Shown: positions 759-6,068 of the stretch, piece after piece
Layout of the letters: each line of letters opens with the position of its first letter
How positions within the stretch are numbered: the first letter of the stretch is position 1
Notes under the pieces: generated by a model
Seen by the model: the letters and a program-made list of their open reading frames with translations, nothing else
Databases searched by the model: none
What the model was told of the DNA's origin: nothing
Sequence record: NC_007821.1
Direction: 5' to 3' (one strand)
Length of the DNA: 6,068 bases
DNA from: Enterobacteria phage WA13
Position numbers and translations under genes: made by a program

Positions 759-2243
759 ATGGCTTCTGAAATCTTCTCTGATGTTGTTAAGTCTGTTTGG
801 TCGCACGCTACGGCTAAGCACGCTCATCTTCGTATGGCTGTTCAGGTTGATAATCGTAGTCGCCTTCTTTCTGATTTGGTTTACCAGTTGGAAAAGCGCC
901 TTTCCGAAGAGACTCATTTGGATGATGAGACTTATGCCCTTTATGAATCTCAGACTGGCCTTTTGGAAGATCATATGGCACTGGTTCGGAAGTGTGCAGC
1001 CCAACTTGATAATAGTAACACTATAGACCACCGTACCCCTTTGGATGCCGAATGTGTTTTCCTGTTTGAAATGATTTGCCCAGGCGTTCGCTACGGTAAA
1101 ACGTTGAATTCTCTTTGGACTAAGTATGTTGCTCAATGGCCTGAGAAGTTAATTCGTCAAGAGTTAGACATGGTTAAGCCTTTATCCTTTAAGGATGAGG
1201 TTGCTAAGTACATGGAGAAGATGCAGGAAAAAACACGCAAAAATCGCATGACTCAAAAAGTAATTAATGAGATGCGTATTGCTCACCAAAAGGGCTGGTT
1301 TTTCGTATTTGATACGTTGACACTTGCTGATGATCGTTTGCAGGCTTTTAATGAAAACCCCAATGCTCTTCGTGATTATTTCAGGACTGTTGGTCGAGCT
1401 GTTCTGCGCGCTGAAGGTCGTTCGGTTAAGGATTCCTACAACGATTGCTATCGCTATCTTTGTGTGCCGGAGTTTGGAGGTCAGCACGGTCGTCTTCATT
1501 GGCATGTTGTGCATATGGTGCGGACTCTTCCTTTGGGAAGTTACGACCCTAATTTCGGTCGCAAGGTACGTAATTATCGCCAGATTAACTCGTTCCGTGG
1601 CATGTGGCCTTATGGCTTCACGCAACCGATAGCTGTACGCTATCAACATGATGCTTATTCTCGCAAAGGTTGGTTGTGGCCTGTTGACAAATCAGGTAAA
1701 GCAATGCAGAGTAAGCCCTATCAGGCGGTCGCATGGTATGTGACCAAATATGTAGCTAAGCAATCTGACCAGCGTCAGAAAGCTATTACTGAGAGACAAA
1801 AAAAATGCAAGAATCCACTTATGGCAATCTGTCTGAAAAAGGAATTCAGAGTTCGCAGCAGCCGGAAACTCGGAATGGAGTTACCGTCGATGGCGCATCT
1901 CAGCAACAAAGTGCTTCTGGAGCTGAGCCGAATCAGCTTCGATTCCAGCCCTCTGTATCAGATAGTGAAAGAGAACGCCAAAAAGCAATTGACCTTGAAC
2001 ATCGGCGCGCTGCCTTTGCACGTCATTTTGGATGTGCGCCCGGAAGTGAGAAGTATGTTGAAAAATATCCGTCGTTTGATGAAAAAGACACCCGAGTTCA
2101 ATTGGCAGAGTTCTATCGCTTCAATGACGGTCACCTTAAAAAATGGGGATATTTCTGATGAAGCACGTCAATACATTATTGATGCAGGAATTACGCCTTT
2201 TGATTTGCGAGCTAAAGCGACTCAAACTTTCGGCGGTAAGTGA
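759..2243 (+). CDS. A: Replication initiation protein A (rolling-circle HUH endonuclease)
   Basis: 494-aa ORF, ATG 759, TGA 2241-2243, SD GAGGG 745-749. C-terminal two-thirds align by eye with phiX174 protein A (GWFFVFDTLTLADDRL, NPNALRDYFR, CVPEFG, HUH-like GRLHWHVVHM, two-tyrosine motif WYVTKYVAK, C-terminal GITPFDLRAKATQTFGGK). Contains the conserved ori(+) sequence. Confidence 0.92.
   Translation: MASEIFSDVVKSVWSHATAKHAHLRMAVQVDNRSRLLSDLVYQLEKRLSEETHLDDETYALYESQTGLLEDHMALVRKCAAQLDNSNTIDHRTPLDAECVFLFEMICPGVRYGKTLNSLWTKYVAQWPEKLIRQELDMVKPLSFKDEVAKYMEKMQEKTRKNRMTQKVINEMRIAHQKGWFFVFDTLTLADDRLQAFNENPNALRDYFRTVGRAVLRAEGRSVKDSYNDCYRYLCVPEFGGQHGRLHWHVVHMVRTLPLGSYDPNFGRKVRNYRQINSFRGMWPYGFTQPIAVRYQHDAYSRKGWLWPVDKSGKAMQSKPYQAVAWYVTKYVAKQSDQRQKAITERQKKCKNPLMAICLKKEFRVRSSRKLGMELPSMAHLSNKVLLELSRISFDSSPLYQIVKENAKKQLTLNIGALPLHVILDVRPEVRSMLKNIRRLMKKTPEFNWQSSIASMTVTLKNGDISDEARQYIIDAGITPFDLRAKATQTFGGK
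1002..1031 (+). other. Viral (+) strand origin of replication, 30-nt protein A recognition and nicking sequence
   Basis: CAACTTGATAATAGTAACACTATAGACCAC differs at only about 3 positions from the phiX174 origin CAACTTGATATTAATAACACTATAGACCAC as I recall it. The expected nick is between G1008 and A1009. Lies inside gene A, as in phiX174 and G4. Confidence 0.8.
1212..2243 (+). CDS. A*: A* (in-frame internal initiation product of gene A); start uncertain
   Basis: phiX174 makes a 341-aa A* from an internal ATG shortly upstream of the conserved GWF..DTLTLADDRL block. Here the in-frame ATGs are 1212, 1221 and 1248; 1212 has AAGGATGAGG (1191-1200) upstream and gives 343 aa. The start cannot be fixed from sequence alone. 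Confidence 0.3.
   Translation: MEKMQEKTRKNRMTQKVINEMRIAHQKGWFFVFDTLTLADDRLQAFNENPNALRDYFRTVGRAVLRAEGRSVKDSYNDCYRYLCVPEFGGQHGRLHWHVVHMVRTLPLGSYDPNFGRKVRNYRQINSFRGMWPYGFTQPIAVRYQHDAYSRKGWLWPVDKSGKAMQSKPYQAVAWYVTKYVAKQSDQRQKAITERQKKCKNPLMAICLKKEFRVRSSRKLGMELPSMAHLSNKVLLELSRISFDSSPLYQIVKENAKKQLTLNIGALPLHVILDVRPEVRSMLKNIRRLMKKTPEFNWQSSIASMTVTLKNGDISDEARQYIIDAGITPFDLRAKATQTFGGK
1805..2158 (+). CDS. B: Internal scaffolding protein B (in a different frame inside gene A)
   Basis: 117-aa ORF inside A. The C-terminus LAEFYRFNDGHLKKWGYF matches the phiX174 B C-terminus (..AEFYRFHDAEVNTFGYF); the divergent N-terminal half is typical for B. Weak SD GAGAG 1791-1795. Confidence 0.85.
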   Translation: MQESTYGNLSEKGIQSSQQPETRNGVTVDGASQQQSASGAEPNQLRFQPSVSDSERERQKAIDLEHRRAAFARHFGCAPGSEKYVEKYPSFDEKDTRVQLAEFYRFNDGHLKKWGYF

Positions 2244-2319
2244 CCCGGATTTTTCTCAGGAGAAGATTCATGCTGAGCTCGACTCGTTACTACGCAAGTT
2301 ATCGCGCTACTTTGACTAA
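2158..2319 (+). CDS. K: Protein K (small non-essential protein overlapping the A/C junction)
   Basis: ATG 2158 overlaps the B stop (TGATG, 2156-2160), as in phiX174. 53 codons translated by hand without an internal stop: MKHVNTLLMQELRLLICELKRLKLSAVSDPDFSQEKIHAELDSLLRKLSRYFD, TAA 2317-2319. Resembles phiX174 K (..KQELLLLVYELNRSGLLA..). Below the ORF-track size cutoff. Confidence 0.7.
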   Translation: MKHVNTLLMQELRLLICELKRLKLSAVSDPDFSQEKIHAELDSLLRKLSRYFD

Positions 2320-2476
2320 GCAGCTGATGTTTTTGACTAAAGCTGACTTTACCAATGATGATGAAAAATGGCTTAATGCCTTTGGTAATTTGCTCCGTCA
2401 GTGGTTTCAGATTGAGGATTGGAAAGGCAATCATAAAAAATTGCTTGACGATTTAAAAAAACGTGATTACATTTGA
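2270..2476 (+). CDS. C: Protein C (DNA maturation/packaging switch protein)
   Basis: ATG 2270 with AGGAG (2258-2262) 7 nt upstream, TGA 2474-2476, 68 aa. Similar to phiX174 C (shared ..DEEKWLN.. region). An alternative GTG at 2240 overlaps the A stop (GTGA) but lacks a comparable SD. Confidence 0.75.
   Translation: MLSSTRYYASYRATLTKQLMFLTKADFTNDDEKWLNAFGNLLRQWFQIEDWKGNHKKLLDDLKKRDYI
2445..2473 (+). promoter_or_regulatory. Sigma70-type promoter PD at the end of gene C, driving D-E-J-F-G-H
   Basis: TTGACG (2445-2450), 17-nt spacer atttaaaaaaacgtgat, TACATT (2468-2473). Closely resembles the phiX174 PD region as I recall it (TTGACA-ttttaaaagagcgtgga-TTACTAT). Confidence 0.55.
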
Positions 2477-2519
2477 GCTGTTTCAAGGTTTCTTACCCAT
2501 TAAATGTTAGGAGAATGTT

Positions 2520-2978
2520 ATGTCTAATCTTGTTGCTACTGATGTTAACTTTGCTACTTCTGTTGCTGCTCTGAAGATGCTTCAGGCTTCCGCTGTTCTG
2601 GATATTACCGAGGAGGATTTTGATTTCCTGACTGGTGATAAAATTTGGATTGCTACTGACCGCAACCGTGCGCGTCGCTGTGTTGAGGCTTGTGTTTATG
2701 GAACACTGGACTTTGTGGGATACCCTCGCTTTCCTGCTCCTGTTGAGTTTATTGCTGCCGTCATTGCTTATTATGTTCATCCCGTCAACATTCAGACGGC
2801 CTGCCTCATCATGGAAGGCGCTGAGTTTACGGAAAACATTGTTAATGGCGTCGAGCGTCCGGTTAAAGCCGCTGAGCTCTTCGCGTACACCTTGCGTGTT
2901 AAGGCCGGATTCAAAGAAACGGTTCTGAGCGCTGAAGAGAATGCTCGTCAGAAACTTCGTGCAAGTGGAGTAATGTAA
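2520..2978 (+). CDS. D: External scaffolding protein D
   Basis: 152-aa ORF, AGGAG (2509-2513) 6 nt before ATG 2520. Near-identical over long stretches to phiX174 D (LQASAVLD.TE.DFDFLT, RARRCVEACVYGTLDFVGYPRFPAPVEFIAAVIAYYVHPVNIQTACLIMEGAEFTENI, C-terminal GVM). Confidence 0.95.
   Translation: MSNLVATDVNFATSVAALKMLQASAVLDITEEDFDFLTGDKIWIATDRNRARRCVEACVYGTLDFVGYPRFPAPVEFIAAVIAYYVHPVNIQTACLIMEGAEFTENIVNGVERPVKAAELFAYTLRVKAGFKETVLSAEENARQKLRASGVM
2698..2928 (+). CDS. E: Lysis protein E (MraY inhibitor), in a different frame inside gene D
   Basis: ATG 2698 with GAGG (2685-2688) upstream; 76 aa. The N-terminal transmembrane region WTLWDTLAFLLLLSLLLPSLLIMFIPSTF is essentially identical to phiX174 E, including the essential Pro in LLLPSLL. 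The supplied ORF 2635..2928 is this frame extended to an upstream GTG. Confidence 0.85.
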   Translation: MEHWTLWDTLAFLLLLSLLLPSLLIMFIPSTFRRPASSWKALSLRKTLLMASSVRLKPLSSSRTPCVLRPDSKKRF

Positions 2979-2979
2979 T

Positions 2980-3054
2980 ATGAAGAAAGCTCGTCGTTCC
3001 CCTTCTCGTAAGAAAGGCGCTCGTCTCTGGTATGTAGGCGGTTCTCAATTTTAA
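2980..3054 (+). CDS. J: DNA-binding/packaging protein J (small basic protein)
   Basis: ATG 2980, two nt after the D stop. MKKARRSPSRKKGARLWYVGGSQF (24 aa), TAA 3052-3054. The C-terminus GARLWYVGG.QF matches phiX174 J; the short length fits the G4/alpha3 type. SD GGAG 2967-2970. Confidence 0.8.
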   Translation: MKKARRSPSRKKGARLWYVGGSQF

Positions 3055-3059
3055 TTAAC

Positions 3060-3073
3060 GGGGCTTCGGCCCC
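3060..3073 (+). terminator. J-F spacer hairpin GGGGCTTCGGCCCC (UUCG tetraloop); likely weak terminator / mRNA-stabilising structure
   Basis: Perfect 5-bp G/C stem closing a C(UUCG)G tetraloop. No strong U tract follows (tataagg), so termination would be partial. The F Shine-Dalgarno AAGGA lies at 3077-3081. Confidence 0.5.
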
Positions 3074-3088
3074 TATAAGGATTCTTAA

Positions 3089-4372
3089 ATGTCAAACGTG
3101 CAAACTTCCGCTGAACGTATTCCTCACGACCTTTCTCATCTGGTTTTTGATGCAGGCAAAATTGGTCGTTTAAAGGTTGTTTCTTGGACTCCTGTTGTTG
3201 CAGGTGATTCTTTTGAGCTTGATATGATTGGCGCTATTCGCCTTTCCCCGCTTCGTCGTGGCCTTGCTGTTGACTCTCGTGTTGACCTGTTCACGTTTTA
3301 TGTCCCTCATCGTCATGTATATGGTGAGCAGTGGATTGATTTTATGAAGCAAGGTGTTGATGCTGCTCCTTTGGCCCCTGTTCAGTGCTCTCGCGGTTGG
3401 GATAGTGCTCAGTATCTTGCTACTATTCCGTCTAGTAACTTAAAGGTTCCTAAGTTTCTTCATCAAGGTTACCTGAACATTTACAATAATTACTTTAAAG
3501 CTCCGTGGATGGATGACCTGACTTATGCCAACCCGTCTAATATGGAGGGTGAAGATGTTCGTTTTGGTGTTCGTGCATGTAACTTGAAAACTATTTGGAC
3601 TGCTCCGCTTCCTCCGGATACTGAAACCTCTCATTCTATGGAGACTGAAACCAACTCCATTGACATTATGGGTTTGCAGGCCGCTTATGCTCAATTACAT
3701 ACTGAGCAGGAGCGTGATTACTTCATGACTCGTTATCGTGATATTGTTAACGAATTTGGAGGTAGTACTTCTTATGATGCGGATAATCGTCCTTTGCTTG
3801 TTATGCATTCTGAGTTCTGGGCCTCAGGCTATGATGTTGACGGCACCGACCAAAGCTCTCTCGGTCAGTTCTCCGGTCGTGTCCAGCAGACGTTTAAGCA
3901 TTCAGTACCGCGATTCTTCTGCCCTGAGCATGGCACTATGTTCACACTCGCATTGGTCCGCTTCCCGCCGACTCATGAAATGGAGATGCATTACTTAGTT
4001 GGTAAAGAAGATTTGACTTATACTGATTTGGCTTGTGACCCTGCTTTGATGGCTAACTTGCCTCCTCGTGAGGTTAATATGTCTCAGTTCTTCCATTCTG
4101 GAAGTGCTAGTGCTAAGTTTAAGATCGCTGAAGGTCAGTGGTATCGCATGCAGCCTGATCGCGTTGCATTGCCGTATAACTATCTTGATGGTTTTCCGTT
4201 CTATAGCGCGATTCCGTCTGATGATATTAAGCAGCGCGTTCTGGTTAATACTGATAACTACGATGAGGTTTTCCAGTCTATGCAGCTTGCGCACTGGAAT
4301 ATGCAGACTAAGTTTAATTGCACCATTTATCGTAATATGCCGACCACTCGCGACTCTATTATGACCTCTTGA
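3089..4372 (+). CDS. F: Major capsid protein F
   Basis: 427-aa ORF. Long stretches match phiX174 F (MSN.QT.AER.PHDLSH, FTFYVPHRHVYGEQWI, GYLNIYNNYFKAPWM, DIMGLQAAYA, LVMHS..WASGYDVDGTDQ.SLGQFSGRVQQT.KHSVPRFF.PEHGTMFTLALVRFPPT, C-terminal PTTRDSIMTS). Confidence 0.95.
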   Translation: MSNVQTSAERIPHDLSHLVFDAGKIGRLKVVSWTPVVAGDSFELDMIGAIRLSPLRRGLAVDSRVDLFTFYVPHRHVYGEQWIDFMKQGVDAAPLAPVQCSRGWDSAQYLATIPSSNLKVPKFLHQGYLNIYNNYFKAPWMDDLTYANPSNMEGEDVRFGVRACNLKTIWTAPLPPDTETSHSMETETNSIDIMGLQAAYAQLHTEQERDYFMTRYRDIVNEFGGSTSYDADNRPLLVMHSEFWASGYDVDGTDQSSLGQFSGRVQQTFKHSVPRFFCPEHGTMFTLALVRFPPTHEMEMHYLVGKEDLTYTDLACDPALMANLPPREVNMSQFFHSGSASAKFKIAEGQWYRMQPDRVALPYNYLDGFPFYSAIPSDDIKQRVLVNTDNYDEVFQSMQLAHWNMQTKFNCTIYRNMPTTRDSIMTS

Positions 4373-4378
4373 TTATGT

Positions 4379-4392
4379 GGGGCTTCGGCCCC
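4379..4392 (+). terminator. F-G spacer hairpin GGGGCTTCGGCCCC (second identical copy); likely weak terminator / mRNA-stabilising structure
   Basis: Same 14-nt sequence as 3060-3073, followed by cTTTaagg and the G Shine-Dalgarno AAGGA (4396-4400). Confidence 0.5.
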
Positions 4393-4409
4393 CTTTAAGG
4401 ATATTGATT

Positions 4410-4955
4410 ATGTTTCAAGTTTATGTATCTAAACATGTTGCTCCGTTCACCTCTGTGAATCGTGCCTTTTCTATTGCCCCTGCCGCCAATCCCGAAGTTG
4501 TTAACTCTGGTGAGATTGTTGCAGGTCGTTCTACTTTTCGCATTGCTTCTTCTATTGCTTCTGCTTCCAATGGTAGTGGTTTTGCTTTTGTTCAGATGAT
4601 GGATCCGAATTCTCCTGATTCTCAGCAGGTTTTCTCTGTTGCTGCTTCGTTGTCCTTTAGTGTTGATTCGAATTATATTCCTTGTGTTGTTCGTTTTGAG
4701 AGCACTGTTGCTCAGCCTACCAGCTTTGATATTGCAACCGCTGATTTTATTCCGGTTGAGGCTTCTGCCCTTTCTCCTCGTGCGCTTAGCGTTCGCGATT
4801 GTGTTACCGTTGATGTTAAGCCTCGTACTGAAGGCAATAATGTTTTTGTTGGTGTGGTTTTCTTCTCTGCTGCCGCTAATGCTGGTAATGTCACTGGTGT
4901 TGTTTCGATGGCTCAGGTTGACCACGAAGTTACAGCTTTGCAGCCGCTTAAATAA
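4410..4955 (+). CDS. G: Major spike protein G
   Basis: ATG 4410 (MFQVYVSKH.., compare phiX174 MFQTFISRH..) with AAGGA 9 nt upstream, TAA 4953-4955, 181 aa. Conserved CVVRFES, VRDCVTVDVKPRT.GNNVFVG and C-terminal LQPLK. The supplied ORF start at 4377 is a GTG inside the upstream hairpin and is not used. Confidence 0.9.
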   Translation: MFQVYVSKHVAPFTSVNRAFSIAPAANPEVVNSGEIVAGRSTFRIASSIASASNGSGFAFVQMMDPNSPDSQQVFSVAASLSFSVDSNYIPCVVRFESTVAQPTSFDIATADFIPVEASALSPRALSVRDCVTVDVKPRTEGNNVFVGVVFFSAAANAGNVTGVVSMAQVDHEVTALQPLK

Positions 4956-5090: not shown

Positions 5091-6068
5091 ATGTTAGGTG
5101 CCGTTGTAGGTGGTATTGCTTCAGCCTTAGCTGGTGGAGCCGCTTCTAAGCTGTTTGGTGGTAAACCTGCCGCTCAAGCCGCTACCGAGTCCTCTGGCCT
5201 TTCTAATGGTCAAGGCGTTATTGGTATGGATCAAGATGCTGGTATTCAGTCAGCTATTCAGGGCTCTAATGTTCCCAATGGTCAGATTCCTGCCCCCACG
5301 CAGACTGGTGGCGTTATGTCTGATGCTAAAAATATGATTAAGAATGCTGGTAAAGATTTGCTTGATGGCGTTATGACCGCTGGAAGTGATCGCATTAAGC
5401 AGGCATTGGTTGATAAGTTGAGTGGTAACGATGCAAAGAAACAAGGACAAGCAACCCGTGATTACTTGGCTGCGGCCTTCCCTGAGCTCAATGCATGGGA
5501 ACGTGCTGGAGCTGGTGCTTCCGGTGCCGGATTGGAGTCTTCCGGCCAGAATCAGCAAAAGGAGTTGATGCGTATGCAGCTGGATACTCAGAAGGATATT
5601 GCTAAGATGCAAATGCATAATAATTTGCAGATTGCTGGTATTCAGTCCGCTACTTCTCGCGAGAATACGAAGGATTCAGTTTATGCTCAGAATGAGATGC
5701 TTAAATTTAATCAACAGGAGTCACAGGCACGCGTTGAGTCTATCCTCGCCAACACTGACCTTACGGCTAAACAGGCTGCCCATGAAATTATGAGAATGGC
5801 CCTTACTCGTGCTCAGGAGACTGGTCAGCATTTAACTAATAGTCAGATTATGGCATTGGAGAAAAAAGTTTATGCAGAAATCGGAAAAATTCATCAAGAT
5901 ACTCAAAACGCTCGTTATGGTAGCTCTCAAGTTACTGCTGCGGCGAAAGATGTTACGAATATGATTACCGATGCCACTTCTGGTGCTGCCGATTGGGTCT
6001 CTCAACAGTGGAATTCTTTCTTTAAAGATGGCAAGTCTAATGGTATTCCCCTCAATACCAGAAAATAA
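5091..6068 (+). CDS. H: Minor spike / DNA pilot protein H
   Basis: 325-aa ORF with AAGGAG 8 nt upstream. Matches phiX174 H (M.GA..GGIASALAGGA.SKLFGG, RDYLAAAFPELNAWERAGA, IAGIQSATSR.NTKD.VYAQNEML, QNARYGSS). The stop codon TAA is the last three bases of the window. Confidence 0.92.
   Translation: MLGAVVGGIASALAGGAASKLFGGKPAAQAATESSGLSNGQGVIGMDQDAGIQSAIQGSNVPNGQIPAPTQTGGVMSDAKNMIKNAGKDLLDGVMTAGSDRIKQALVDKLSGNDAKKQGQATRDYLAAAFPELNAWERAGAGASGAGLESSGQNQQKELMRMQLDTQKDIAKMQMHNNLQIAGIQSATSRENTKDSVYAQNEMLKFNQQESQARVESILANTDLTAKQAAHEIMRMALTRAQETGQHLTNSQIMALEKKVYAEIGKIHQDTQNARYGSSQVTAAAKDVTNMITDATSGAADWVSQQWNSFFKDGKSNGIPLNTRK

Follow-up and report, generated by a model that had tools for sequence, protein, structure and literature searches.

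The short-tailed lysis gene E of the alphatrevirus WA13, overprinted in the +1 frame of gene D

The 91-aa protein E of phiX174 (NC_001422, 568-843) and its relatives are described as acting on MraY. In the MraY-E-SlyD (YES) complex, E is reported to occupy the MraY active site and block the synthesis of peptidoglycan precursors (PMC12506998). The toxic, MraY-binding part of the protein has been assigned to its N-terminal region (PMC5405515; PMC11812184; PMC4825663). The bent transmembrane (TM) helix of E is reported to fit a groove adjoining MraY helix 9 (PMC11812184), and the P21A substitution is reported to abolish lysis (PMC11126076). According to PMC11198818, the IF domain of SlyD clamps a positively charged α-helix of E in the phiX174 complex (PDB 8G02), guarding E against degradation; this structure is described as resolving E residues 1-65 only (bioRxiv 10.64898/2026.07.25.740675). 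Proteins with a shorter C-terminus also appear in this literature. PDB 8G01 is reported to have been produced from pRSFDuet-EcMraY-E(ID21) plus SlyD (PMC10914600), and the 75-aa E of alpha3 is among the plasmid-borne E genes listed for lysis-curve assays (PMC11126076, Fig. 8 legend). In a preprint on saturation mutagenesis of phiX174, ~90% of E mutations are said to be excluded as multi-ORF (bioRxiv 10.64898/2026.07.25.740675).

We analyzed the 6,068-nt sequence of Enterobacteria phage WA13 (NC_007821.1), the whole of which is referred to here as the window. Gene D, encoding the 152-aa external scaffolding protein, spans 2520-2978 on the + strand (Pfam PF02925, 262 bits; annotated in phage WA45) and provides the host frame of E. 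The E coding sequence, also on the + strand, occupies 2698-2928 and comprises 76 codons and a TGA stop. It lies wholly within gene D, in the +1 frame of D, starting 178 nt into that gene (178 mod 3 = 1) and ending 50 nt before its stop. Translation yields a 76-aa protein, MEHWTLWDTLAFLLLLSLLLPSLLIMFIPSTFRRPASSWKALSLRKTLLMASSVRLKPLSSSRTPCVLRPDSKKRF, followed by the stop, and an exact-sequence comparison matched it to WA13 gpE (YP_512414.1). The WA45 record places gene E at exactly 2698-2928, within gene D at 2520-2978, and the WA45 genome is 99.3% identical to the window over all 6,068 nt, compared with 92-94% for other alphatreviruses. Other proteins located in the window were gpA (759-2240), which is common to WA13 and WA45, and the WA13 protein gpH (5091-6065). 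With a probability that we put at roughly 0.93, WA13, an Alphatrevirus (Microviridae, Bullavirinae), has at 2698-2928 its single lysis gene, gene E, overprinted on D in the +1 frame. The gene itself is already known: it is annotated in GenBank, its length is normal for the genus, and a close homolog has been structurally solved.

The translation start of E is embedded in D codons. A Shine-Dalgarno-like GAGG on the + strand (2685-2688), located 9 nt 5' of the E ATG, is built from D codons Glu56-Ala57, and both the motif and its spacing to the ATG are kept in all 10 genomes compared, phiX174 and G4 among them. The ATG itself (2698-2700) is assembled from D codons Tyr60 (TAT) and Gly61 (GGA) and corresponds by homology to position 568, where phiX174 E starts. 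An in-frame upstream GTG at 2635, which would give a 97-aa ORF, was rejected as the E start because it has no Shine-Dalgarno sequence at a suitable distance and because the ATG is the codon homologous to the phiX174 start. Two minus-strand ORFs that overlap the E region (2493-2780 and 2792-2914) were set aside as mechanical ORFs only. A promoter and terminator scan of 2200-3150 yielded nothing relevant to E above shuffles.

Three features elsewhere in the genome were recorded alongside gene E. ORFs on the + strand at 65-433, 138-509, and 523-699 (122, 123, and 58 aa, respectively) fall in an H-A intergenic block specific to alpha3/WA13-like phages; they are unannotated in the WA45 record and gave no PHROG match. 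The J-F intergenic region contains a GC-rich hairpin, GGGGCTTCGGCCCC, at 3060-3073 (about -11.5 kcal/mol with flanks), and an identical motif occurs in phiX174; presumably, it serves as a post-J terminator or stability hairpin. The gene G ORF (4377-4955) has its mechanical start at a GTG (4377), and relatives annotate an ATG at 4410, a minor start-site ambiguity.

Profile searches placed the WA13 protein in the expected family. E matched Pfam PF04517 (Microvir_lysis) over residues 35-74, with 70.9 bits against a cutoff of 25 (E = 7.8e-20), and the PHROG 1472 "lysis" profile over residues 1-75, aligned to positions 1-75 of the 91 in the profile (E = 2.2e-40). These matches, together with retention of the frame in 12 of 12 alphatreviruses, argue that the ORF at 2698-2928 is not a chance ORF. 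Among solved structures, PDB 8G01 chain B matched E over residues 1-76 (E = 4e-35) and 8G02 chain B over residues 3-70 (E = 1.1e-31); the first 76 residues of 8G01 chain B are identical to ID21 E. As a separate observation, 8G02 chain B reads SWKARNL, with Arg42, where the phiX174 E of NC_001422 has Leu42; the E proteins of ID21, alpha3, phiK, and St-1 natively carry Arg42.

Ungapped alignment of WA13 E with phiX174 E gave 59 identities in 76 residues overall. The N-terminal TM segment (residues 4-32, WTLWDTLAFLLLLSLLLPSLLIMFIPSTF, encoded by 2707-2793) is identical at 29 of 29 positions, including Pro21 (2758-2760). Identity stands at 32 of 35 over residues 1-35, at 27 of 32 (84%) over residues 36-67, and at 0 of 9 over residues 68-76. 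Residues 2 and 3 are Glu and His in WA13 E, in contrast to Val and Arg in phiX174 E. Both proteins are encoded at the same locus in D, in the +1 frame, with the same 178-nt offset and the same Shine-Dalgarno/ATG context, but phiX174 E is 15 residues longer, and its residues 68-91 show no sequence relationship to WA13 residues 68-76. The initial annotation had identified the ORF as lysis protein E, with a TM segment and proline matching phiX174 and a length of 76 aa against 91 aa. The identification is backed by PF04517, PHROG 1472, and the exact match to annotated gpE, the TM claim by the alignment, and both lengths by translation. Its description of the C-terminus as divergent is accurate for the last nine residues but overstated as a whole, given the similarity of residues 36-67 to their phiX174 counterparts.

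The predicted physical properties follow the same layout. Hydropathy (Kyte-Doolittle, 19 residues) reaches a maximum of 2.79 at residues 10-28, the hydrophobic core of the TM segment. A positively charged cytoplasmic segment follows (residues 33-67, 2794-2898); its homologous region in phiX174 and ID21 E contains the helix bound by SlyD. Residues 33-76 include 12 K/R and 1 D/E. The divergent tail, LRPDSKKRF (residues 68-76, 2899-2925), has a net charge of +3 and overlaps the variable loop of D (D codons 127-136). An AF2 model of low overall confidence (mean pLDDT 62.9) contains a helix at residues 3-27 (pLDDT 74-89), a second, low-confidence helix at residues 36-53, and a disordered tail (pLDDT < 50). 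Sequence identity to 8G01 weighs far more as evidence than this model. WA13 E therefore combines the features of Bullavirinae E proteins, namely a profile match, nesting in D, an N-terminal TM helix with Pro21, and a basic cytoplasmic domain.

The short form of E is found throughout the genus. E is 76 aa long in 9 of 12 alphatreviruses (WA13, WA45, NC3, ID32, NC35, ID21, NC28, ID62, and NC29) and 75 aa long in 3 of 12 (alpha3, phiK, and St-1). Elsewhere, the lengths are 91 aa in phiX174, ID2, and ID18, 96 aa in G4, and 103 aa in ID52. A tail of the form ...PCVL(R/K)xD(S/L)K(K/R)(RF/L), with a stop at codon 76 or 77, is present in all 12 alphatreviruses, WA13 included. Judged from these sequences, the 76-aa E is unexceptional within a family of short-tailed E proteins and is the norm for the genus. 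A homologous-protein search was discarded as a guide to natural E length: the named phage proteins were 76, 76, 91, and 75 aa, and the remainder comprised hundreds of unnamed, uninformative sequences of 100-133 aa, which we take to be phiX174-derived read translations.

Within the genus, the closest relatives differ from WA13 E in few respects. The gpE proteins of WA45, NC3, and NC35 (e.g., YP_512424.1) are 76 aa long and share the coordinates, tail, and stop of WA13 but carry Arg3 in place of His3, a difference of one nucleotide (2705, A in WA13 versus G). ID21 E is likewise 76 aa long and 86.8% identical, with the TM core, Pro21, basic cytoplasmic segment, and stop position of WA13. It departs from WA13 E by ten substitutions (E2G, W7S, D8G, T9I, S30L, L42R, R45Q, T47I, T64I, and K74R), and its stop is TAA rather than TGA at the same codon. 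The E proteins of alpha3, phiK, and St-1, from the same genus, share the short-tail architecture but terminate at a TAA one codon earlier than the WA13 stop and are more divergent over residues 33-58 (e.g., QH at 34-35 and R42).

The sequence downstream of the E stop retains what appears to be a longer E frame. The stop (TGA, 2926-2928) spans D codons CTG/AGC (Leu-Ser) and is followed on the + strand by a remnant at 2929-2973, in which 14 open codons (ALKRMLVRNFVQVE) precede a second stop. This TAA, 5 nt before the D stop, corresponds to the position where E ends in phiX174 and ID2 and would bring the frame to 91 codons in total. An open E frame of 14-15 codons followed by a second stop is found in 10 of 12 alphatreviruses; ID21 and NC29 are without the second stop, and their E frame would continue into J. 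The simplest reading is that the short E would be a 91-codon-type frame cut by nonsense codons at codon 77 (codon 76 in alpha3, phiK, and St-1), with extension of a shorter E as the opposite possibility. Where the E tail (residues 68-76) overlaps D, the D protein differs from that of phiX174 at 7 of 10 residues. The alignment of tail codons within this variable loop of D is uncertain, as a V-L motif in WA13 is shifted by one codon relative to phiX174. A GTT CTT ACT context in phiX174 could give TGA by one D-silent change. A single D-synonymous change at a homologous codon separating phiX174 from the WA13 stop was considered and rejected, given the one-codon shift in the local alignment.

The truncation had been taken to fit the view that only the N-terminal helix of E is needed. 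The literature cited above does back the N-terminal region, but WA13 E adds nothing to that case, as its cytoplasmic segment (residues 33-67) is retained. The truncation says little on the sufficiency of the TM helix because 8G02 resolves E only as far as residue 65, and the missing part is C-terminal to that point. The WA13 changes begin at residue 68 and are therefore outside the resolved interaction surface. Accordingly, E residues beyond ~67 are expendable or variable, and dispensability of the cytoplasmic domain is not implied by WA13 E. This makes WA13 E a clean natural example of the expendable extreme C-terminus of E.

Analysis of the D/E overlap indicated which frame constrains which. 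E codon positions 1, 2, and 3 correspond to D codon positions 2, 3, and 1. Between WA13 and phiX174, D residues 60-94 show 0 of 35 amino acid differences, and E codon positions 1 and 3 are therefore pinned; the D wobble position, which is free for D, is the second position of E. We counted variable D wobble columns across 17 genomes from three genera, with genomes treated as independent despite their kinship. On this kinship-blind count, wobble columns are variable at 15 of 19 codons in D41-59, a conserved D core with no E overlap, versus 1 of 20 over E codons 10-29, the TM core (Fisher p = 2e-6). Over E36-67 and after the E stop, the corresponding counts, also ignoring kinship, are 28 of 32 and 16 of 16. 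The TM core admits 46 D-synonymous single-nucleotide changes; none would be silent in E, 35 would introduce a polar, charged, or Pro residue, and 5 would create a stop.

The drop in wobble variability from the upstream D core to the TM core therefore indicates that selection on E itself freezes D silent sites. The mechanism would be the need of E for U at codon position 2, which encodes hydrophobic residues, and which would hold the D wobble positions fixed. We consider it highly probable that the invariant TM core is kept by purifying selection on E, on top of the constraint from D. The cytoplasmic part of E has no such extra constraint across genera, as its variable wobble columns attest. 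The initial annotation had stated that D constrains E; this holds insofar as D fixes two of three positions per E codon, but the freezing of D silent sites by selection on E shows that the constraint also runs in the other direction. The D/E pair illustrates how overprinting can let a younger frame (E) freeze silent sites in the older one (D).

Several alternative explanations bear on these observations. Perfect TM conservation could be a passive by-product of a highly conserved D, as the initial annotation implied, and the invariance of D60-94 between WA13 and phiX174, which leaves two thirds of the E sequence there fixed by D, fits such a view. We nevertheless regard it as improbable: D third positions are far less variable in the TM core than in D41-59, and equal D conservation over E36-67 leaves 28 of 32 wobble columns variable and tolerates many E substitutions between genera, so that D constraint alone does not yield an invariant E. 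A different proposal, compatible with purifying selection on E, is that the high similarity to phiX174 stems partly from a D/E core (~2640-2890) recombined between the phiX174 lineage and WA13-like alphatreviruses. We hold this tentatively, at somewhat short of even chances. Outside the TM region (D41-59 plus D95-126), D wobble differences between WA13 and phiX174 number 9 of 51, equal to within-genus values at the same sites (WA13-ID21, 9 of 51; WA13-alpha3, 10 of 51), and WA13-G4 differences number 27 of 51, whereas the D flanks differ at 38 of 66 sites for both WA13-phiX174 and WA13-G4. The core-versus-flank comparison gave p = 1e-5 and the phiX174 core versus the G4 core p = 4e-4, both on small counts. 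Sliding-window identity between WA13 and phiX174 is 88-100% over 2644-2883, above that between phiX174 and G4, and in gene C (2270-2470), phiX174-G4 identity is 68-80% versus 40-65% for WA13-phiX174. Rokyta et al. in 2006 reportedly described at least two inter-clade transfers. Weighing against recombination are the small counts and the strong dual constraint, which compresses the divergence of all pairs in the segment. Because G4-like phages share the invariant TM core, selection is required in any case, and the shared polymorphisms at E residues 7, 8, 9, and 30, which cut across genera, could be homoplasy at few permitted states. If the D/E core was exchanged, the lysis module would be mobile between genera, with its tail set by the D loop of the recipient. 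Separately, phiX174 shares 81-84% identity with ID2 and ID18 in the final ~96 nt of D (corresponding to window 2880-2975), and the figure for G4 is only 72-75%; a second inter-clade exchange at the 3' end of D, involving phiX174 and ID2/ID18, is possible.

Two further alternatives concern the short tail itself. Occasional readthrough of the TGA at 2926-2928 would produce a second, 91-aa isoform of phiX174 length, and the 14 open codons beyond the stop, ending at a phiX174-type stop in 10 of 12 alphatreviruses, would accommodate it. However, the stop is TAA at the same codon in ID21 and TAA one codon earlier in alpha3, phiK, and St-1, and ID21 and NC29 are without the second stop. Nor is the open stretch improbable: where conserved D residues pin the frame, 14 codons would lack a stop by chance with an estimated probability of roughly one half, and the Gly-Val-Met codons at the D C-terminus dictate the second stop (GAG TAA). 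Readthrough is thus very unlikely. More unlikely still is a crippled or dispensable short E, with the lysis of WA13-like phages depending on something else, for which the sole point in favor is a tail shorter than in the model phage. The ORF, its start context, and its stop position are kept in 12 independently isolated plaque-forming phages, and the ORFs scanned against Pfam and PHROG gave no other lysis-family match. In addition, the 76-aa ID21 E is reported to form the MraY-E-SlyD complex, and the 75-aa alpha3 E to have been cloned for lysis curves (PMC11126076). The preferred reading remains that 2698-2928 is the single lysis gene of WA13, with the short tail typical of its genus.

The one residue that separates WA13 E from its nearest relatives has a counterpart in phiX174 genetics. 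E codon 3 (2704-2706, + strand) is CAC (His), with A at nt 2705, a position silent in D Thr62. This nucleotide, G in WA45, is the sole difference between the two phages in the D/E region. Codon 3 is CGC (Arg) in WA45, NC3, NC35, and ID32, and ID21, G4, and ID2 natively have His3 as well. In phiX174, the homologous substitution, G575A (R3H), is known as Epos pos6; it offsets a slyD defect in the host and speeds plasmid-driven lysis, the latter effect being ascribed to faster E synthesis (PMC4825663, Table 1; PMC3324380, Table 2). In WA13, the segment homologous to the SlyD-bound cytoplasmic part of phiX174 E is conserved in the same allele that carries the Epos-type His3. Two readings, that the E of WA13 is a naturally occurring "Epos" allele conferring quicker E synthesis and less SlyD dependence and that the D/E core was exchanged between the phiX174 lineage and WA13-like alphatreviruses, are, taken together, rather doubtful. 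If the natural Epos reading is correct, near-identical phages would carry standing natural variation in their dependence on the chaperone or in the timing of lysis. The His3 allele and the possible D/E-core mosaic offer small leads for lysis-timing or bacterial-ghost work with E.

By analogy with the E proteins of ID21, phiX174, and alpha3, we infer that the WA13 allele would cause lysis, inhibit MraY, and depend on SlyD. The N-terminal TM helix, kinked at Pro21, would insert in the inner membrane and bind MraY, thereby stopping the synthesis of lipid I. The chaperone SlyD would hold the basic cytoplasmic helix (~residues 36-53) and protect E from degradation, and growing cells would be expected to lyse at septation. 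Such a mode of action has parallels among other small phages. Qbeta A2, which acts on MurA, and LysM of phage M, which acts on MurJ, are described as resembling E in principle, in that a small phage protein acts by blocking one of the enzymes that supply lipid II and not by degrading the wall (PMC12506998). They differ from E in sequence, target, and phage family and do not belong to its protein family.
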